In this document: piece after piece, positions 34,218 to 55,823 of the stretch
Numbering within the stretch: position 1 is the stretch's first letter
Layout of the letters: each line of letters begins with the position of its first letter
NCBI GenBank assembly: GCA_050015395.1
Contig: JBEKBM010000003.1
Coordinates: 32,001 to 96,000, forward strand
Length of the DNA: 64,000 nt
Source of the DNA: Candidatus Bathyarchaeia archaeon
Lineage (GTDB): Archaea; Thermoproteota; Bathyarchaeia; Bathyarchaeales; Bathycorpusculaceae
Reading direction: 5' to 3'
Program-made: the position numbers and the translations under genes
The notes under the pieces: model-generated
Database searches by the model: none
The model's input: only the letters and a program-made list of their open reading frames with translations
What the model was told of the DNA's origin: nothing

Positions 34218-34305
34218 TGGTGCAGGGGGTGGGATTTGAACCCACGAACGCCTACGCGATAGGGTCCTAAGCCCTACTCCGTTGACCAGGCTTGGAGACC
34301 CCTGC
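34218..34305 (-). tRNA. tRNA-Leu(UAG)
   Basis: GCAGGGG/CCCCTGC acceptor, TAGGG-CTTAGGA-CCCTA anticodon arm, long variable arm, GGTTCAAATCC, encoded CCA. Confidence 0.95.
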
Positions 34306-34453
34306 AACTTGTTTATGCGAGTTTATTTTGCTTTCAAGACGAGGTAATCTTTGTACTAACTAATTAATATGAAGCTTTTCCTCAGTTCAGTAGATCCGTA
34401 AGTGGGTTAGCTTTGTGTGCTCTACTTCCTACGGGTAGGTGTAGTTATATACG

Positions 34454-34479
34454 TTTTGACGGTACATTTTGACGGTACA
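34454..34479. repeat. Exact 13-bp tandem repeat TTTTGACGGTACA
   Basis: Two adjacent copies between the divergent tRNA genes. Confidence 0.8.
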
Positions 34480-34758
34480 GTTGGGCTGGCGGTAAAGTTT
34501 GAGTGGTTTCTTGGCTTGGATTGCTCGGGCTTATGCAGGTGAACAGTCTTCGGCGTCGTTGAAGGCTTTCAAGCAGCCTTAAGCTGGCTTGCAACTATGC
34601 TTAGCAAGTAAAAAACGTTATAGCCAAGCAGGTGCCAGACACTTTCGGAACTACCGCAGTTGCAAGAGTTAATTGACTTGCAACATTGCTGTTTGCCGCA
34701 GGTTTAACCGTAAGCATTTTATTGCCAAGAAGCAGTTCTTTCACGGGAACACCCTTGA

Positions 34759-34835
34759 GCCTCGGTAGCCTAGCCCGGTGGGGCGTTACCTTGGTAAGGT
34801 AATGGTCGCGGGTCCAAATCCCGCTCGAGGCTCCA
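34759..34835 (+). tRNA. tRNA-Thr(GGU)
   Basis: GCCTCGG/TCGAGGC acceptor, TTACC-TTGGTAA-GGTAA anticodon arm, T-loop TCCAAAT, encoded CCA. Confidence 0.9.
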
Positions 34836-34844
34836 ATTCCACGC

Positions 34845-35069
34845 TTACTTTTCCGTTAATTCACGGAATTCTTCTTTGGTTAAACCCGCCTGCTGTATGA
34901 TTGCGAGCAGGGTGCCTTTCTTTATAGGGTCATGGCGGGGAACGGTGAGTTTGTGTTTTCCATCGGTTAAAAATATGTGGCTTCCTTTTTGACCAACAAC
35001 TTTGAATCCAGCTTTGTTGAGCGCTTTAATGACCTTTTGCCAGGAAGCGGAGGATAGCTTTTCAGACAG
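34845..35069 (-). CDS. hicA: HicA family toxin (CTG start; not in ORF track)
   Basis: (M)SEKLSSASWQKVIKALNKAGFKVVGQKGSHIFL...TVPRHDPIKKGTLLAIIQQAG; in-frame TAA immediately before the CTG. Confidence 0.88.
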   Translation of the reverse strand: MSEKLSSASWQKVIKALNKAGFKVVGQKGSHIFLTDGKHKLTVPRHDPIKKGTLLAIIQQAGLTKEEFRELTEK

Positions 35070-35286
35070 TTATTTCCACTAGCTCTCTTTTTCGCTTAAG
35101 CTGGTCAAGTTCTTCGGGGAACGCTTCCAGATAACCTTCGATGGCTTCTTTTATGTTGGAAAGGGCTTCTTTACGGTTTTCTCCTTGACTGATTGCTCCG
35201 GGAAGTTCCACACATTGTGCAGAGTATCCGCCTTCTGGTTCCTCCCTAAGAATTACTGTAAACTTTCTACCTTTAATTTCCACCAT
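35062..35286 (-). CDS. hicB: HicB family antitoxin
   Basis: GGYSAQCVELPGAISQGENRKEALSNIKEAIEGYL. Confidence 0.9.
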   Translation of the reverse strand: MVEIKGRKFTVILREEPEGGYSAQCVELPGAISQGENRKEALSNIKEAIEGYLEAFPEELDQLKRKRELVEITV

Positions 35287-35403
35287 AAATTCTCCTCTTA
35301 TCATAAAAGACATAGTCTAAACGATATAAACTTTGACGCTAAAAAAATAGTATAGCCGCTTCTTGAAAAACAAATTCGGTGTCTGAAGAGAATTGTATGT
35401 TAT

Positions 35404-35449
35404 CTTGGTAAGGTAATGGTCGCGGGTCCAAATCCCGCCGAAGGCTCCA
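35404..35449 (+). repeat. 3' half of tRNA-Thr (att-like copy 1)
   Basis: CTTGGTAAGGTAATGGTCGCGGGTCCAAATCCCGCCGAAGGCTCCA, near-identical to 34790-34835. Confidence 0.9.
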
Positions 35450-35522
35450 TCCGCCTGCCTTCCATAATTAACTTGAGTGCAAGCAAAAATGCATATATAT
35501 GCATATGTGCATAAAATCATGT

Positions 35523-35753
35523 ATGACCAAAGTTATATCCCTCTCGAACGAGGCGTACCAAACTCTGAAGGATTCCAAGAAACCTGGGGAGTCTTTTTCA
35601 GATGTTGTTTTAAGGGTCGTTAAAACGAAAAAAAAGAAGTCGCTACTGGAGTTTTCAGGCAAATGGGCAGGCAACGATATAGACGAAGTGTTTGCGCAGA
35701 TAAAGAAAGATAGAGAGCAATCAGCTTCTCGGCAGGTCGACCTGTTCAAGTGA
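35523..35753 (+). CDS. vapB: VapB-type antitoxin
   Basis: MTKVISLSNEAYQTL..K.PGESFSDVVLR. Confidence 0.85.
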   Translation: MTKVISLSNEAYQTLKDSKKPGESFSDVVLRVVKTKKKKSLLEFSGKWAGNDIDEVFAQIKKDREQSASRQVDLFK

Positions 35754-36139
35754 TCCTTGACACAGATTTATTGATTGCTTTACTGAAAGGAGAGACAGAA
35801 GCAAATAAAGCAATGGAACGGTTGGATGAGAATGGCAAACGAGTTGCAACTACAATACTCACGGCATATGAACTTTTGAGAGGAGCATACATTTCATCTA
35901 AACCAGAAAAAAACTTGGCTGAGGTTCATGAGTTGCTATCTAACATAGAGGTTTTAGATTTGACGTTGCAAGCGTGCGAAGAAACCTCTAAGATTTATCG
36001 AGACCTCCGGAAAGCTGGCTGCTTGATTGGCGAATTCGACACTTTGATAGCTGCAATAGCGAAAACGCATGCTGAGACACTTATGACAAGAGATGAACAT
36101 TTCACTCTTATTCGAGGAATAAATGTAGAAGAATGGTAA
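35750..36139 (+). CDS. vapC: VapC PIN-domain toxin
   Basis: MILDTDLLI, AYELLRG, FDTLIAA, TRDEHF. Confidence 0.92.
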   Translation: MILDTDLLIALLKGETEANKAMERLDENGKRVATTILTAYELLRGAYISSKPEKNLAEVHELLSNIEVLDLTLQACEETSKIYRDLRKAGCLIGEFDTLIAAIAKTHAETLMTRDEHFTLIRGINVEEW

Positions 36140-36158
36140 ACGTCGTTTCCTGTTGTTG

Positions 36159-36186
36159 GGTAAGGTAATGTTCGCGGGTCCAAATT
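36159..36186 (+). repeat. Truncated 3' part of tRNA-Thr (att-like copy 2)
   Basis: GGTAAGGTAATGTTCGCGGGTCCAAAT. Confidence 0.8.
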
Positions 36187-36429
36187 GAAGTCATTTTTTT
36201 TTAACCAAATTCACCCGTTTTGCCCTGTGAAAACAATAATCCAGACGCTAAATAAAAAAAGCAACTTAAAATAACCCTGACTAAAAGCGTCTACCTATAG
36301 ACCTACCCTGCTATTTGTAGCAAAAAAACAGCACAAAAAGCAACAACCGCAAAAATCGAAACAAAACCCATTCACGTTTCGAAACGTATAAGAGAAAAAC
36401 TCTGTTTCTCAAATAGCGAAGGCTCAACC

Positions 36430-38712
36430 TTGCGAGTAAAACTCAACGTCACCGGTATTGTTCAAGGCGTCGGTTTCCGCCCATTCATCTACCGCTTAGC
36501 CACAAAAAACGGCTTGGCAGGGTACGTTCGCAACAGGGGCGACGCTGGAGTAGAAATCCTCTTGGAAGGAGACGCGCAACGCATCAAGAGTTTTATGCAT
36601 GACTTAACTGAGAAAAAGCCGCCCTTAGCCCAAATTGATGCGGTTAAGTCTACTGAGCTTTCAGGCAAAAATCAACATGACAAATTCACGATTTATAAGA
36701 GTTCTGAGGAAGCGGAGTTTTCAGGCTCAATTATACCGCCGGACATCGCCATATGTAACGAGTGCCTAGCGGAGCTGCGCGACCCAAAAAACCCGCGTTA
36801 CGAATACTTCTTTATCACCTGCACCAATTGCGGGCCACGCTTCACAATCATCGAACGATTGCCCTACGACCGAGAAAACACCACTATGCGGGAGTTTCCC
36901 CTGTGCGGCTTCTGCCAAAAAGAATACAATGACCCAGCAAACAGGCGGTTTCACGCGCAAACCGTGGCTTGTCCAGAATGCGGTCCAAAAGCCTACTTAA
37001 CAACAAGAACTGGCGAACCAATCAAAGCTAAAGACCCAGTACGTGAAGCGGGAAAACTGTTATCCGAAGGCAATGTGCTTGCAATAAAAGGCTATGGCGG
37101 CTTCCACATTGCAGCATCAACCATGCAAGAGAAGCCTCTGGCGGCGCTTCGAACAACGAAGCATAGGCGCGAAAAACCCTTCGCAATCATGACAAAAAGT
37201 CTTGGGGCAGCAAAAAGTTTCGCCGAAGTAAGTTCGAAGGAGCAAGAACTGCTATCTTCCCCTGCACGCCCAATAGTACTGCTAAACAAAAGCGCCAGTT
37301 ACAATCTTTCACCTTTGGTTGCGCCGAACCTGCACAACGTCGGCGTCATGCTGCCCTACACTGGCTTGCACTACATGCTTTTTGACCGTGTTGATGACTT
37401 GGCGTTTGTGATGACAAGCGCCAACCCGCCAAACCAGCCAATCGTGAACGACAACACTGAAGCACTCAAAACATTAGGCAGCACAGTGGATTATTTCCTG
37501 TTTCACAACCGCAACATTGCCCACCGATGCGACGACTCAGTCATGCGCGTTCATGGTAGTCGCCAAGTGTTTCTTAGGCGAAGCCGAGGTTACGCTCCAG
37601 CACCAATCAGGCTCAAAGCTAAATCAAAACGGTGCGTCGTCGGTTTAGGCGGCGAACTAAACAACACAGCCTGCGTATTGCTTGATGACAAAGCCTTCAT
37701 CAGCCAACACATCGGCGACGTAGAAAACGTCGAAACACGAGCTTTCCTTCAAGAAGCCGCAAATCACCTCTACCAGTTAACCAACTGCCATGCCGAAATC
37801 GTGGTTTGCGATTTGCACCCGAAATTCACCACTACTGCTTTAGCCCAAGAGATGGCGGAAGCGGACGGTTCACCGCTGATTCAGGTGCAACATCACCACG
37901 CGCACGCCGCCGCTTTAATGGCAGAGCACAACTTAGAAGAGGCTGTTACTGTTGTTTGCGACGGGTACGGCTACGGCACGGCTGGCGAGGCTTGGGGCGG
38001 CGAAATCTTGTTTTGCACGCGTGAGTCGGCGGAGTTTAAGCGGCTTGGGCATCTGGAACCGCAACCATTGCTTGGTGGAGATGTGGCTAGCCGTTACCCC
38101 TTGCGTGTAGCCGCTGGAATGCTCGCTAAAGCTGGCGTAGAGGTTGAGCCTTGGCTGATGCAGAACAGTGCGCATTTGCCTTTCGGCGAAACTGAAGCCA
38201 ACCTGATTATTGGCCAACTTGCAAAAGGCTTTGGAACGGTTGAAACTACGAGTTGCGGCAGAGTTTTAGACGCGGTTGCTGCCGTTTTAGGCGTATGTTA
38301 CGAGCGCAGTTATGAGGGTGAGCCAGCCATGAAACTGGAATCAGCCGCGGTAAATGGCAAAGATGTTTTGAACCTAAAGCCAATCTTGCATGGAGGCATG
38401 CTGGATACTACGACCATGCTGAGATCAATCTTTGAAAACAAAGAGAACTTATCCATAGGCGATTTAGCTTATTCTGCTCATGCTTACTTGGCAAAAGGTT
38501 TAGCTTCTTTAGCGGTAGAGAAAGCTTTGGTGCTAGGCGTTAGAGACGTTGGCTTTTCGGGTGGCGCTGCCTGCAACCAGATACTTGCTAAAGTCATGCG
38601 TGAGATTGTTGAGGAGGCTGGGCTGTGGTTTCTGGTTCATGAGGCTGTTCCAGCTGGGGACGGGGGAGTTTCGTTCGGTCAGGCAGTTGTAGGTGGATTT
38701 TCACGGTTTTAG
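36430..38712 (+). CDS. hypF: Hydrogenase maturation carbamoyltransferase
   Basis: GIVQGVGFRPF, twin Zn fingers, DLHP, QHHHAH, GDGGVSFGQ. Confidence 0.96.
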   Translation: MRVKLNVTGIVQGVGFRPFIYRLATKNGLAGYVRNRGDAGVEILLEGDAQRIKSFMHDLTEKKPPLAQIDAVKSTELSGKNQHDKFTIYKSSEEAEFSGSIIPPDIAICNECLAELRDPKNPRYEYFFITCTNCGPRFTIIERLPYDRENTTMREFPLCGFCQKEYNDPANRRFHAQTVACPECGPKAYLTTRTGEPIKAKDPVREAGKLLSEGNVLAIKGYGGFHIAASTMQEKPLAALRTTKHRREKPFAIMTKSLGAAKSFAEVSSKEQELLSSPARPIVLLNKSASYNLSPLVAPNLHNVGVMLPYTGLHYMLFDRVDDLAFVMTSANPPNQPIVNDNTEALKTLGSTVDYFLFHNRNIAHRCDDSVMRVHGSRQVFLRRSRGYAPAPIRLKAKSKRCVVGLGGELNNTACVLLDDKAFISQHIGDVENVETRAFLQEAANHLYQLTNCHAEIVVCDLHPKFTTTALAQEMAEADGSPLIQVQHHHAHAAALMAEHNLEEAVTVVCDGYGYGTAGEAWGGEILFCTRESAEFKRLGHLEPQPLLGGDVASRYPLRVAAGMLAKAGVEVEPWLMQNSAHLPFGETEANLIIGQLAKGFGTVETTSCGRVLDAVAAVLGVCYERSYEGEPAMKLESAAVNGKDVLNLKPILHGGMLDTTTMLRSIFENKENLSIGDLAYSAHAYLAKGLASLAVEKALVLGVRDVGFSGGAACNQILAKVMREIVEEAGLWFLVHEAVPAGDGGVSFGQAVVGGFSRF

Positions 38713-52624: not shown

Positions 52625-52666
52625 TGGTGCCGAGGGTGGGACTTGAACCCACGAAGGTCTACGCCA
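52625..52666 (-). repeat. 3' end of tRNA-Leu(UAA) (att-like distal copy)
   Basis: tggtgccgagggtgggacttgaacccacgaaggtctacgcca. Confidence 0.85.
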
Positions 52667-52671
52667 AATGT

Positions 52672-53025
52672 CTAGCCTGTTTTAATAGCAATCGGCTTCT
52701 CGCTTTCTTCAACCTGTTTTTCCATTGCCTTTCTTGAAATAGTCATATCAAGCCTAATCAATTGTTTCACAATGTCGTTAGCTCTGTCAAGCTTGTACAG
52801 CGTTGCTCTTCCGATTTTACGGGTTGCTATCAGAGATCCCGACTGCTCAAGTTCTTTCCAATACTTGAAAAACGTTGCCCTGCTCATAGCGAGATTTTTT
52901 GCCGCCTCATTTTTTGAGTAATCAGAAAGCGGGTTATCTAAGAAGAAATCGATGATTCTTAACGTTGGGCTATCTCCCAAGTATTTGAGCAATAGTGTTT
53001 CATCCGCTTTGTAAGCCGTTCCCAT
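52672..53025 (-). CDS. Winged-helix DNA-binding protein
   Basis: LRIIDFFLDN...SRATF...TRKIGRATLYKL. Confidence 0.8.
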   Translation of the reverse strand: MGTAYKADETLLLKYLGDSPTLRIIDFFLDNPLSDYSKNEAAKNLAMSRATFFKYWKELEQSGSLIATRKIGRATLYKLDRANDIVKQLIRLDMTISRKAMEKQVEESEKPIAIKTG

Positions 53026-53038
53026 ATCAAAACACCTG

Positions 53039-53401
53039 CTAACGGTAACTAAACCTTGCGTCCTTAGGTGTTAAGTCCAACGCGTCGGCGATCATTTCCT
53101 TAACGAGCGGCCTTTTTCTAACTTTTTGAAACTCCTCAGGAGTATACATTAGCAGATCCAACTCTTCAACAAATGACCAATATTCCAGAAGTATCTTTCC
53201 CCGCTCAAGACTGGTTAGACCCATGAAGCTTTTCGAAACAACTATCAAATCGATGTCGCTATCTGTTTTTCTTTTTTGTTTGGCTGTTGAGCCGAAAAGA
53301 AAGACTTTTTCAAGTCCTATTTTTGCATCAACAACTTTCAGAAATTCTTTCAGTTTATCCATTAAGGGCCTGTTGTCGTCAAGCACTAAAGCCTTCGTCA
53401 A
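53039..53401 (-). CDS. Minimal nucleotidyltransferase (MNT) antitoxin
   Basis: LFGSTA...SDIDLIVVS...YTPEEF. Confidence 0.88.
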   Translation of the reverse strand: MTKALVLDDNRPLMDKLKEFLKVVDAKIGLEKVFLFGSTAKQKRKTDSDIDLIVVSKSFMGLTSLERGKILLEYWSFVEELDLLMYTPEEFQKVRKRPLVKEMIADALDLTPKDARFSYR

Positions 53402-53826
53402 GTCCTTTCCTCCTCAATCCTTGCCTTAATAACTTTGATGATGGGCAAAGCTTTTGTCATGAATTCATCCACGACGGCTTTAGTGTAGATATCACTGGGC
53501 AGTTCAAGAGTAGCATCAAAATATCTCGTTTCTCGAACGGCCAATGATAGTTGTCTGAGAAAACGAATTTGCTCTTCGGTTAGTTCGACCTTGTCAGCTA
53601 TTTTCGAATGTAATTCAACCAAATTATGCACCTTAGGAGGAGCCGCTTTCTTCAACACAACGATAGCTGCCTTCAAGGATTTTTCAACAGTCAAATGAAG
53701 CCAGAAAGCTACGACGGGATATGCCTCGCAGCTAATAACTTTCTCCAGCATTCTTAAAGAATCATCCAAATCCTTAAGCCATAATTGAATGTATTCATTA
53801 GAGAATGTGCTAGTTTTTTTTGTCAT
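53398..53826 (-). CDS. HEPN-domain protein (toxin partner of MNT)
   Basis: H..VEKSLKA...PKVHNL...TRY; ATG at 53826 (the track ORF extends into the tRNA copy). Confidence 0.85.
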   Translation of the reverse strand: MTKKTSTFSNEYIQLWLKDLDDSLRMLEKVISCEAYPVVAFWLHLTVEKSLKAAIVVLKKAAPPKVHNLVELHSKIADKVELTEEQIRFLRQLSLAVRETRYFDATLELPSDIYTKAVVDEFMTKALPIIKVIKARIEEERT

Positions 53827-53889
53827 TTGACTCTGAGTACAAGATAACTTTCTTACTATTTTGATTTTTCTATCTTCCAAAATTACGGC

Positions 53890-53955
53890 GGTGCCGGGGG
53901 TGGGACTTTTGAACCCACGAAGGCCTGCGCCAGAGGATCTTAAGTCCTCCTCCAT
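53890..53955 (-). repeat. Copy of the whole 3' exon of tRNA-Leu(UAA) (att-like)
   Basis: Identical to 55701-55764 apart from a 2-nt insertion in the T-loop. Confidence 0.9.
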
Positions 53956-54180
53956 CTCGATTATGAGAGAGGTATTCTCAAAAAAACTTTAAGCAGAGGA
54001 ATGACTAGGACTGAACAAGCCTTTAGAAAAAGAACTTGGTGAGTATTTATCAGAAAAACGAGGCTGGCCATGGACTCTTACTTGCTTTATTATTAACTCA
54101 TGCAACGAAAGCAATAAAGACAAGATTAAATGAGACGTTTTTCTTCTTTAAGCGTGTGTTATCTATTTGATTTTAATTAA

Positions 54181-55422
54181 CTATTTCAGATTGTGCATCT
54201 TTTTGAAATCATAAATATTCGCTTGGTAATTCCTAGTTTTGAATTTTGCTATTTTTTCAGATATCTTCTCGGTTCCAAAATCCATGAACTTATCTGCAAC
54301 AGCGTAACCTAATCCGGCTAGTAAACCCAACTTGCCAATAGGTCCGGCAGCTACACTACCAATAGCGGCCATCGAAAGAGGAATTCCAACCTGCAAATTT
54401 TTTATTCGGTTAACTATTGTTTTATCGTTCCAGATTGAGTCCAGTATTTCCGAAAAATCTCTAACATTCTCATTTATCAAGTCTGGTTTCCCCACCACAA
54501 TTGCCTCGTTCAATGATTCTTGTACTTTTTTTAGGTCATATGAATCATAATGATACATGATATCCTTGCAGGCGTCAAATCCCATGGGGGCATACGTTAA
54601 CTTGTTTAGGAGAAATTTTCCTATCTCGCACGGAAGCTCTATTTTAGGCTGATAGGGCTTTGGCAATATTTTAGCGTCGATTATGTCGCTGAGCGTGAAG
54701 CTCTGTACGTCGCAAAGAAAGTCACCAATTGGGTTAGTAATGAACATTCGGCATTCGGTAAGCAGAGAATCAGCCTCTTCAGGGTTATCTATCATTAGGT
54801 TCTCAATATCCTCGGCTATGGGAAAGTGACAAGTTTTTAGGGTTACATAAGTGTGATAATCGTCAACTAAAACTTCCTCAAATAAGTGAGATTGATAGAT
54901 GTTTAGCCGCTTAAGCCAATCAAAGTACTTAATTTTACCTATCGAAGTAAAGGATTCATATGCTTTCTTAACCTCTACACGATTGGCCCAGCAAGAAAGC
55001 GGCGCAACCACATACCATGGAGGATTCAACTGCTCAAAAAAAGTATCCAAGTGACTCTTGCCCTCATAAAAAAGCGGATCGTTAATTAGTACAAATTGTA
55101 TTTTGCCGGTTTCCTTGACAAAATCGATTAGTTTCTGGGCTTCCTTTATCTTAAAAAAACTACTTTCATAAACTTCTAATGGCCAAGGTGCGAGTGGCAG
55201 AATAAGGGAACCACAAAAAGGAATTTGAGCCCATACATTGTTGATTTGAGCACTTTCTAGCGAAGTCATTGCCACAGGTTTTTGTAAATTAAAAAAGCGT
55301 TCTCTTGGAGGGTACTTGTCTTTTGTGCCATCGAATTGACCATTTTCTATTCGCTTTACCAACAATCTATTGTAAATGTCCAACTCTTTCTGCTTATATT
55401 CTTCAAGATACTTTCGATCCAA
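54181..55422 (-). CDS. Hypothetical 413-aa protein, possible C-terminal membrane hairpin
   Basis: Long AT-rich ORF bracketed by tRNA-Leu copies; GIPLSMAAIGSVAAGPIGKLGLLAGLGY segment. Confidence 0.75.
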   Translation of the reverse strand: MDRKYLEEYKQKELDIYNRLLVKRIENGQFDGTKDKYPPRERFFNLQKPVAMTSLESAQINNVWAQIPFCGSLILPLAPWPLEVYESSFFKIKEAQKLIDFVKETGKIQFVLINDPLFYEGKSHLDTFFEQLNPPWYVVAPLSCWANRVEVKKAYESFTSIGKIKYFDWLKRLNIYQSHLFEEVLVDDYHTYVTLKTCHFPIAEDIENLMIDNPEEADSLLTECRMFITNPIGDFLCDVQSFTLSDIIDAKILPKPYQPKIELPCEIGKFLLNKLTYAPMGFDACKDIMYHYDSYDLKKVQESLNEAIVVGKPDLINENVRDFSEILDSIWNDKTIVNRIKNLQVGIPLSMAAIGSVAAGPIGKLGLLAGLGYAVADKFMDFGTEKISEKIAKFKTRNYQANIYDFKKMHNLK

Positions 55423-55699
55423 AACGCCAACCTGACCTTCTTCTCAAATGTATTGTTCTTTATCCATATTAGGTTTTATAAAATGGTCAAAAAGGAGCTT
55501 ACTCATTCTTTTCTAAAATTTATGGCTTTTTAAGTATATCTGCTACGCTGATATTCAGGGGAAGCGCTATCTCCGACGCTATTTTCAGTTTTCCCCATTA
55601 ACGCAAGAATCGGAAGGGCTGTTTTGCAACATGATTCATGAACTGGGCAGAAGAAAGATCTCAATCTAAGGGATAAACCCAAAACCATTTTTGCCATAG

Positions 55700-55823
55700 T
55701 GGTGCCGGGGGTGGGACTTGAACCCACGAAGGCCTGCGCCAGAGGATCTTAAGTCCTCCTCCATATCTTAGGCAATCAATTTTTTCTGGCTGCCTATTTG
55801 GACCTGGCTCGGGTACCTACTGC
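55700..55823 (-). tRNA. tRNA-Leu(UAA)-like gene with non-canonical D-arm intron (55763-55797) and poorly paired acceptor stem (possible pseudogene)
   Basis: GAGGA-CTTAAGA-TCCTC arm, variable arm, T arm and CCA intact; intron hairpin TAGGCA/TGCCTA with BHB-like ends; 5' GCAGTAGG vs 3' CCCCGGC. Confidence 0.7.

Follow-up and report, generated by a model that had tools for sequence, protein, structure and literature searches.

Integron cassettes are handled by IntI through attI and folded attC sites, are mostly promoterless and served by a common promoter, and include toxin-antitoxin cassettes in chromosomal integrons. 'Gene capture' by SSV-type archaeal integrases has reportedly been described by She et al. 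in 2001 and in 2004, and the anticodon stem is the usual limit of the identity blocks at integrase attachment (att) sites. The SSV-type suicidal integrase family is tied to hyperthermophilic archaea in the abstract of PMC7253208; streptococcal cis-mobilizable elements (CIMEs) are decayed integrative and conjugative or integrative and mobilizable elements (ICEs/IMEs) with tandem accretion at att (Pavlovic et al. 2004, as summarised in the review PMC5704250); and the smallest thaumarchaeal cryptic integrated element (CIE) measures 2.6 kb and carries its own integrase, according to a passage of Krupovic et al. 2019 (PMC6563490). The present analysis concerns an array at the tRNA-Thr(GGT) gene of a Candidatus Bathyarchaeia archaeon (assembly of 2.59 Mb in 42 contigs, labelled G000), in which a hicBA and a vapBC toxin-antitoxin (TA) operon follow the tRNA, with a copy of its 3′ part at the far end of each. 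It lies on contig C3, part of which forms the window, that is, the whole stretch of 64,000 nt that was analysed. No description of integrase-less TA mini-cassettes bounded by tRNA halves in archaea was found in full-text searches, subscription journals and supplements being outside their coverage. The archaeal origin of the genome is read from its tRNAs, aTrm56 and an acidic ribosomal stalk protein, and the stretch is present, as Logan contigs, in 24 public runs from 22 studies, labelled as peat and wetland metagenomes.

The order of the array, tRNA-[hicBA]-repeat-[vapBC]-repeat (coordinates in Table 1), had been proposed by a sequence-only reading and was borne out by ARAGORN, Rfam, the repeat search and Pfam. 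A single direct-repeat family of 51 nt was found, with three copies all in register from tRNA position 27. The first copy beyond the tRNA (frag1) was 92% identical to it over 51 nt, whereas the distal copy (frag2) was 61% identical over the same length, with a core of 27 nt (36159-36185) at 96%; the distal repeat is thus the more decayed, as had been stated from the letters. Moreover, frag1 and frag2 were the best non-self matches of tRNA-Thr(GGT) in the 2.59-Mb genome (E-values of 3.8e-14 and 2.2e-6, respectively), by which a chance origin of the repeats is excluded. Measured from repeat start to repeat start, the units span 614 nt (hicBA) and 752 nt (vapBC), and they contain only the TA genes, their own upstream region and an att copy. 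The spacing is compact, with 10 nt from the tRNA to the hicA stop, 86 nt from the hicB start to frag1, about 50-70 nt from frag1 to vapB and about 12-20 nt from the vapC stop to frag2, and hicBA reads opposite to the array direction. Regarding the acceptor strand, frag1 carries CGAAGGC, which is the usual form of this tRNA across the genus, and the tRNA of G000 carries TCGAGGC, while the reverse arrangement was found in G098. The earlier description of the repeats as att-type tRNA 3′ parts, and of the units as minimal and without an integrase, also stood. From this anatomy and from the integrase-bearing neighbours found in relatives, it is close to certain that recombination at the tRNA-Thr att gave rise to the array. 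Two other readings of the repeats were rejected: a split or hidden tRNA, as copies 2 and 3 have no 5′ half and nothing is called there by ARAGORN or Rfam, and an RNA or folding role for them or for a neighbouring 268-nt repeat, Rfam returning two tRNAs only and the fold z-score being −0.99.

The two TA operons, previously called complete, were both recovered as pairs by Pfam. The HicA toxin (34848-35069, minus strand) matched PF07927 over profile positions 1-58 of 58 (E 1.6e-18, 67 bits), and beside it lies the HicB-like antitoxin (35065-35313, minus strand; PF15919, E 1e-5), whose 26.1 bits are slightly below the 27-bit cut-off; VapB (35499-35750, plus strand) matched PF02697 (E 1.6e-16, 61.2 bits) and PIN/VapC (35750-36136, plus strand) PF01850 (E 6.9e-20, 72.3 bits). 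Both predicted pairs have the layout that characterises their families, namely a HicA domain with an adjacent HicB gene in one operon, and a PIN toxin after a small overlapping antitoxin gene; the hicB TGA stop overlaps the opening of the hicA frame, and the vapB stop overlaps the vapC start. Completeness has to be qualified for hicA, which has no ATG, GTG or TTG start, its frame opening with CTG directly after TAA. This layout, with a conserved overlap ATAACTGTCTGAAAA holding the hicB stop, is common to all 15 aligned genomes (G000 and 14 relatives), so that the non-canonical start is a family trait and not a local defect, and hicA as a pseudogene is ruled out. Translation of hicA may accordingly use a non-canonical start or termination-reinitiation, or HicB and HicA may be fused through a +1 shift at the stop. 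Furthermore, an A/T-rich box, AAACGATATAAACTTTGA, is conserved in most of the 30 hicBA loci examined and is a putative hicBA promoter, while the best-conserved stretch of the vapBC unit family is the palindromic region ATGCATATATATGCATATG before vapB, where positions 35489-35508 had a mean pairwise identity of 0.96 among 19 units; a promoter or operator function is likewise putative for it.

The units were then followed through 120 genomes of the genus, the hicBA unit being scored at E ≤ 1e-10 and found in 40 of them. Its 30 examined loci were directly 3′ of tRNA-Thr(GGT) in 12 cases, of tRNA-Thr(CGT) in four and of tRNA-Thr(TGT) in one; 13 had no adjacent tRNA, three of these having a tRNA-Thr 0.4-1.25 kb upstream and some being preceded by a decayed repeat. 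The distal repeat (18-79 nt) was retained in 10 of the 12 GGT loci, and in G086 (L029, C1:2553457-2556928) hicBA lay between two complete, 100% identical tRNA-Thr(GGT) genes, forming a 79-nt repeat at positions 1404-1482 and 2004-2082 of that locus. A distal repeat could be recognised at three non-GGT sites (G003, G046 and G020), and in all three its anticodon arm was that of the GGT tRNA instead of the local one. The CGT and TGT tRNAs at the non-GGT sites were unchanged, and they had in common with the distal repeat only the last 16 nt, CCCGCTCGAGGCTCCA. The simplest reading would be that the distal repeat travels with the hicBA unit and that, in its rare moves to other tRNA-Thr genes, the crossover took place in the shared 3′ end. 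The order of units was also variable: hicBA then vapBC in G000, G098, G103 and G111, vapBC alone behind the tRNA in G004 and five others, vapBC then a hicB remnant in G077, and two hicBA units in G123. Key layouts were seen in single-contig assemblies (G003 and G086). In addition, tRNA-Thr(GGT) sites with no TA units were observed, holding a Cdc6-like fragment and a DNA methylase in G003 (L041, C1:1846500-1852500), and a row of small genes with a 585-aa ATPase-like open reading frame (ORF) in G014 (L042).

The vapBC unit was also present in 40 of the 120 genomes. Among 30 vapBC loci, a tRNA-Thr was directly upstream in seven (six GGT, one CGT), and a tRNA-Thr-like fragment of at least 20 nt was found within about 110 nt upstream in 11; six loci come after a hicBA unit and eight precede hypF. 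A downstream repeat was retained in 15 of 19 full-length vapBC units. The mean pairwise identity in the alignment of these 19 units was 0.72 for the upstream repeat and 0.68 for the core of the downstream one, compared with 0.71 for vapB and 0.65 for vapC, while the adjacent spacers and flanks were unalignable (0.34-0.45). Moreover, the vapBC of G004 and G019 was only 64-72% identical beside a hypF that was 90% identical, a difference that resembles the exchange of one unit for a related one more than simple inheritance. A 140-nt duplicate of the hypF 5′ end was found in G130 (L138, C35:9307-12567) upstream of repeat-vapBC-repeat-hypF (positions 1092-1230 and 2306-2676), the trace to be expected if a circle with hypF sequence had been inserted by a single crossover.

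A second site, the tRNA-Thr(CGT) gene, was orthologous by its flanks, which are conserved across the genus, and was variably filled. The contents between tRNA and flank gene were surveyed in 25 loci and ranged from empty to several kinds of unit (Table 1); longer arrays of 1.2-4.7 kb, judged from the spacing of matches, occurred in further genomes. A chromosomal inversion between the GGT and CGT tRNA genes was rejected as an explanation of hicBA at the CGT site, both CGT flanks being the usual ones and only the unit being added. The sequence-only reading had suggested comparing the locus across strains for cassette gain, loss and order, and what was found in relatives was gain, loss, replacement and changed order of units, together with empty sites at an orthologous tRNA. 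A separate observation concerns the homologous non-coding segment of 390-652 nt at this site, which has no convincing ORF (a 55-aa frame is present in three loci); the empty sites lack it, and in G095 it is found beyond hicBA. It could represent a unit free of genes, or else encode a small RNA or protein.

As for the recombinase that had been proposed to act in trans, an SSV-type integrase family starting in the tRNA-Thr repeat was found in relatives, and none for this att in G000. None of the six PF00589 matches of the genome is on C3, the ORF and Pfam searches returned no integrase ORF between tRNA-Leu and hypF, and neither unit holds any part of Int(N) or Int(C) by ORFs, Pfam or integrase homologue search; an integrase frame read through frag1 runs on into unrelated sequence. 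The tRNA-Thr(GGT) site of G016, by comparison, is occupied by a 6.2-kb element with a perfect 46-nt repeat at its end. From the element an ORF runs into the tRNA, and a second, the frameshifted Int(C), starts in the distal repeat, the att being translated as WSLRRDLDPRPLPYQ in both, a predicted layout that is the split Int(N)/Int(C) of SSV-type integrases. An ORF starting inside the repeat was also found in G013, beside vapBC. Homologues of the G016 Int(C) piece were detected in 49 of the 120 genomes, G000 not being among them, and a 32-36-nt tRNA-Thr repeat of 97-100% identity contains the start of the ORF (255-334 aa in intact copies) at 11 of 12 loci. All five integrase ORFs tested passed PF16795 (29-34 bits vs. 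a cut-off of 27), and the SSV-type loci with att inside the gene include L149, L153, L154, L156 and L159. Furthermore, G075 and G020 have the layout '<-Int(C) / repeat / vapBC / repeat', with the integrase-bearing element on the tRNA side of the vapBC unit, which fits the earlier claim that the newest cassette is nearest the tRNA. A different PF00589 integrase with a 28-nt repeat occupies the same tRNA in G040, from another family of the order. Among IMG/VR viral contigs, no relative of the G096 integrase and no exact match of the 32-nt att string were found, nor was a vehicle identified there.

The scan of all tRNAs of G000 that the sequence-only reading had suggested showed that 3′-part repeats go beyond tRNA-Thr. 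When the 39 ARAGORN tRNAs were compared with the genome, 24 non-genic tRNA fragments of at least 22 nt were counted, nearly all of them 3′ parts, and many were closely spaced behind a tRNA or one another with small cargo (Table 1). A total of 7 of the 43 PIN (37) and HicA (6) matches were at most 200 nt from a tRNA gene or a fragment of at least 22 nt, compared with a mean of 0.80 under random placement, and seven was reached in 0 of 2000 permutations. One further array lies in the window itself, with repeats of the tRNA-Leu(TAA) type: its first unit holds a 412-aa ORF of no Pfam family (54181-55422), and its second HEPN (53398-53955), nucleotidyltransferase (53039-53401) and winged helix-turn-helix-like (52672-53025) genes. 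No tRNA gene is called there, and a matching anticodon arm is also found on C16. A wider claim may tentatively be attached to these data, although it is held with somewhat less than even confidence: a genus-wide, tRNA-anchored cassette system in which modules of 1-3 genes, mostly TA and defence, tagged with a tRNA 3′ half, would be shuffled between species at many tRNA genes by a recombinase borrowed from the suicidal SSV-type integrases of viruses or plasmids. Such a system would be a functional analogue of integrons, with the TA cassettes as selfish hitchhikers.

Apart from these arrays, a 268-nt dispersed repeat was observed between tRNA-Leu and tRNA-Thr (window 34388-34657), with imperfect terminal inverted repeats CAGTAG(A/T)TCCG. 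It has at least 10 genome copies, seven (the window copy included) at 93-95%, four at 69-81% and one short piece, and one copy closely precedes tRNA-Thr(CGT) on C9. In one run, contigs covered the repeat at up to about 20 times the depth of the flanks. With no Rfam match and no unusual fold, it looks like a miniature inverted-repeat transposable element (MITE).

Table 1. Features of the array in the window, states of the tRNA-Thr(CGT) site in 25 loci of the genus, and other tRNA-repeat loci of G000. Positions with no contig name are those of the window.
Feature	Position or loci	Strand	Basis or content
tRNA-Leu(TAG)	34218-34305	-	ARAGORN
tRNA-Thr(GGT), array anchor	34759-34835	+	ARAGORN; Rfam RF00005, 58.4 bits
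Reference repeat copy (att), tRNA 3′ part, anticodon stem to CCA	34785-34835	+	direct-repeat search, family D1
hicA toxin, 74 codons + stop	34845-35069	-	stop-to-stop ORF; PF07927
hicB-like antitoxin, 83 aa	35062-35313	-	ORF; PF15919
hicBA upstream region	35314-35398	-	conserved A/T-rich box AAACGATATAAACTTTGA (+ strand)
Repeat 1 (frag1), copy of tRNA positions 27-77, end of hicBA unit	35399-35449	+	repeat and genome searches
Palindromic A/T-rich region before vapB, ATGCATATATATGCATATG	35471-35522		inverted repeat I2
vapB antitoxin	35499-35753	+	ORF; PF02697; relatives begin at ATG 35523 (MTKVISLS...)
vapC toxin (PIN domain), 129 aa	35750-36139	+	ORF; PF01850
Repeat 2 (frag2), decayed tRNA 3′ part, end of vapBC unit	36151-36201	+	repeat and genome searches
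hypF-like gene, chromosomal flank of array	36430-38712	+	ORF
CGT site, empty	4 loci: G022, G105, G021, G078		3-10 nt
CGT site, near-empty	2 loci: G094, G096		47 or 76 nt
CGT site with homologous non-coding segment	13 loci (L083-L094, L096)		390-652 nt
CGT site with hicBA	4 loci: G003, G046, G130, G095		with variants
CGT site with vapBC	1 locus: G077		vapBC then hicB remnant
CGT site with different pair	1 locus: G000 (contig C9)		different PIN-antitoxin pair
tRNA-Arg(CCT)	C25:41942-47692		PLP enzyme, repeat, second hicBA (656 nt), repeat, sensor kinase + exchanger, repeat
tRNA-Arg repeats	C39:12136-15457		994-aa Eco57I-like methylase between two repeats; ApeA-HEPN gene just upstream
tRNA-Ser(GCT)	C2:137117-138860		AAA ATPase + 159-aa gene, repeat
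tRNA-Pro(CGG)	C26:36516-39402		UvrD-like helicase, repeat
tRNA-Cys repeats	C2:56507-57382		antitoxin + PIN between two repeats
tRNA-Ala repeats	C4, C32		MazE-type antitoxin or unknown gene + PIN beside each repeat
tRNA-Gly(TCC)	C1:63047-63903		MazE-type antitoxin + PIN, 19-nt repeat
tRNA-Thr(CGT)	C9		PIN + antitoxin
tRNA-Leu(TAA)-type 3′-part repeats	52625-55762	-	copies at about 55700-55762, 53890-53952, 52625-52664

Taken together, the array is probably, though with appreciable room for doubt, a stack of att-bounded, integrase-less cassettes joined by site-specific recombination, serviced in trans and kept by TA addiction. What we observe is how the array is built, that units vary as wholes among species, that the GGT-type repeat travels with them, that some sites are empty and that relatives carry the integrase family; what we infer is servicing in trans, circular intermediates, addiction and the sequence in which events took place. 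Under this proposal, tRNA-Thr(GGT) would be an integration hot spot with two integrase-less mini-elements stacked at the tRNA 3′ part, each made of one TA operon, its presumed promoter region and one att copy. The att would be that of SSV-type ('suicidal') tyrosine integrases beginning inside the same tRNA-Thr sequence, and whole att-to-att modules would be inserted, lost or exchanged when a passing or nearby element provides the integrase in trans. Incoming DNA would be placed beside the tRNA, older units being pushed outward, and rare jumps to other tRNA-Thr genes would proceed via the shared 16-nt 3′ end. The TA cargo, in turn, may hold the units in place, as cells losing a unit by recombination between its flanking repeats would be poisoned.

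Several observations weigh against this proposal. No match to the tRNA-Thr-specific SSV-type integrase of relatives was found in G000, in which two sub-threshold PF16795 matches lie on C4 and C34, and its assembly holds no further att copy except one 19-nt piece on C32, so that the units would be stranded there at present. Frag2 and the distal repeats of G003 and G046 are decaying, as scars no longer in use would; gene conversion with the tRNA could account for the conservation of the repeats; and most genomes of the genus are metagenome bins, in which repeats invite misassembly. Four public runs (X2, X20, X21 and X24) were examined as Logan assembled contigs, and no circle ('go back') joint was seen in them, though such contigs break at repeats and drop rare forms. 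One joint skipping from 35449 (frag1 end) to 36430 (hypF start) was present in one of the four runs (X20; depth 4 vs. 14.5, 90% likeness), and it may come from a relative; given how the contigs break, they neither support nor weaken mobility. A DNA tree of hicBA (24 rows) was also compared with that of a species proxy, the 440-nt flank gene of the CGT site (37 rows). The four CGT-site hicBA units formed one clade (99/95) with the TGT unit apart, and only two site changes were needed among 17 tRNA-adjacent hicBA units, by which the hicBA-tRNA linkage can be largely vertical. In favour of the proposal, two clades of the flank-gene tree were rejected when held together on the hicBA tree, G098, G108 and G120 with p-AU (approximately unbiased test) 0.003 and G123 and G016 with 0.019, while G002, G119, G047 and G048 were not (0.066). 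As the trees were already known when the groups were chosen, and as one gene of 440 nt beside a hot spot serves as the proxy, the conflict counts as supporting evidence only, and the two hicBA copies of some genomes could be paralogues mimicking transfer. Path lengths agree with the conflict, being 0.24 on the hicBA tree vs. about 0.8 on the flank tree for G000-G047 (summed by hand) and 0.25 vs. 0.14 for G000-G130.

Many of these points would be shared by an account that we hold to be unlikely, although by some way the stronger of two rivals, in which the units are immobile remnants of larger integrase-bearing elements ('gene capture'), whittled down to an addiction module and att scars since TA loss is lethal, and the variation reflects ancient insertions, differential loss, gene conversion by the tRNA and rearrangement between att copies. 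The few site changes, the decaying repeats, the absence of an integrase for the att in G000 and of circles in the Logan contigs all agree with it; survivorship would give TA enrichment near tRNA scars; the linkage of vapBC to hypF in 8 of 30 loci suggests an old inherited arrangement; and a passage of PMC8371274 has integrase-less integrated elements presumably arising through integrase gene loss. The sequence-only reading had itself set its cassettes against such deletion remnants, and decayed integrase-bearing elements are indeed present at the same tRNA in relatives (G016 and G013), but the two TA units hold no integrase remnant, though Int(C) starts inside the distal repeat of intact elements. 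Independent whittling should, moreover, give differing end points, and hicBA and vapBC have the same att-to-att boundaries across many species. Remnants also fit poorly with the GGT-type repeat behind CGT and TGT tRNAs, the clean empty sites at tRNA-Thr(CGT), repeats conserved like coding sequence beside unalignable spacers, and the divergent vapBC beside a well-conserved hypF in G004 and G019. Movement with no integrase at all, by loop-out between the 30-50-nt direct repeats and re-entry, or by an inter-species swap after DNA uptake, through homologous recombination via the tRNA-derived ends and flanking genes, is rated as much less probable still. The CGT and TGT jumps, which used only the shared 16-nt 3′ end and left the resident tRNA unchanged with a foreign GGT-type repeat, are unlike an anticodon-loop crossover and speak for it, as does the hypF duplicate of G130, and integrase-independent excision between tandem elements is mentioned in part of PMC8371274. 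However, 16-50 nt is short for such recombination, the repeats coincide with the att of an integrase family that is widespread in the genus, and the units begin at the anticodon stem, where integrase identity blocks usually end.

If the units move as such, they would be, at about 0.6 kb, among the smallest site-specific mobile modules known in archaea. Cassettes serviced in trans would also explain the spread of TA and defence genes in uncultured archaea without transposases, the trails of 3′-half copies at tRNA genes, and the influence of 'suicidal' integrases on host genomes outside the elements that encode them. In this peat-dwelling genus, SSV-type integrases with a tRNA-Thr att are present in 49 of 120 genomes; the abstract of PMC7253208 links the family to hyperthermophiles. 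The tRNA-Thr(CGT) site, whose flanks are conserved and which is either empty or filled in at least five ways, is a natural experiment suited to population studies. Should the units be remnants after all, the array would still illustrate clearly how addiction modules outlast the decayed integrated elements that brought them.

Compared with the systems described so far, the array is not an integron, and its earlier description as integron-like does not hold in the strict sense. Integrons resemble it as arrays of units of one or two genes with one recombination site each and TA cargo, in which the newest unit is beside the anchor and the recombinase is not part of the cassette. However, there is here no resident integrase, attI, attC or common promoter; the boundaries are direct repeats of the tRNA-Thr 3′ part and not folded attC sites, and the units have promoter-like upstream regions of their own and stand in either orientation, hicBA being reversed. 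With CIEs it has in common that small elements occupy archaeal tRNA genes, and a passage of PMC6563490 gives tandem arrays at one att for tyrosine-recombinase elements as well as VapBC cargo; the units are, by contrast, about four times smaller than the 2.6-kb CIE and have no integrase. With SSV-type (class I) integrated elements it shares direct repeats of the tRNA 3′ part as borders of the inserted DNA. This repeat also encloses integrase-bearing elements in relatives, where the integrase gene starts inside the repeat and is split on integration, and captured DNA can remain without a working integrase, as parts of PMC7253208 and PMC8371274 relate. SSV-type elements differ from the units here, which measure 0.6-0.75 kb with one TA operon each and neither integrase half, which belong to a peat archaeon rather than a hyperthermophile, and which are in tandem, whereas Badel et al. 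2020 (PMC7253208) report no tandem integration for their suicidal integrases. Finally, the array resembles a CIME in retaining attL and attR with integration and transfer genes absent and in standing in tandem with other elements at a tRNA 3′ end; it could perhaps be moved by the integrase of a neighbour, and accretion with integrase-bearing elements is seen in G075 and G020. CIMEs are, however, usually several kb long, bacterial and defined as decayed ICEs or IMEs, while this array is archaeal, its units show no remnant of a decayed parent (decayed integrase-bearing neighbours being seen in relatives), its cargo is a single addiction module per unit, and the same unit recurs at three tRNA genes. 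By structure, the array falls under the definition of a CIME, while the origin which that definition prescribes is not apparent in its units.

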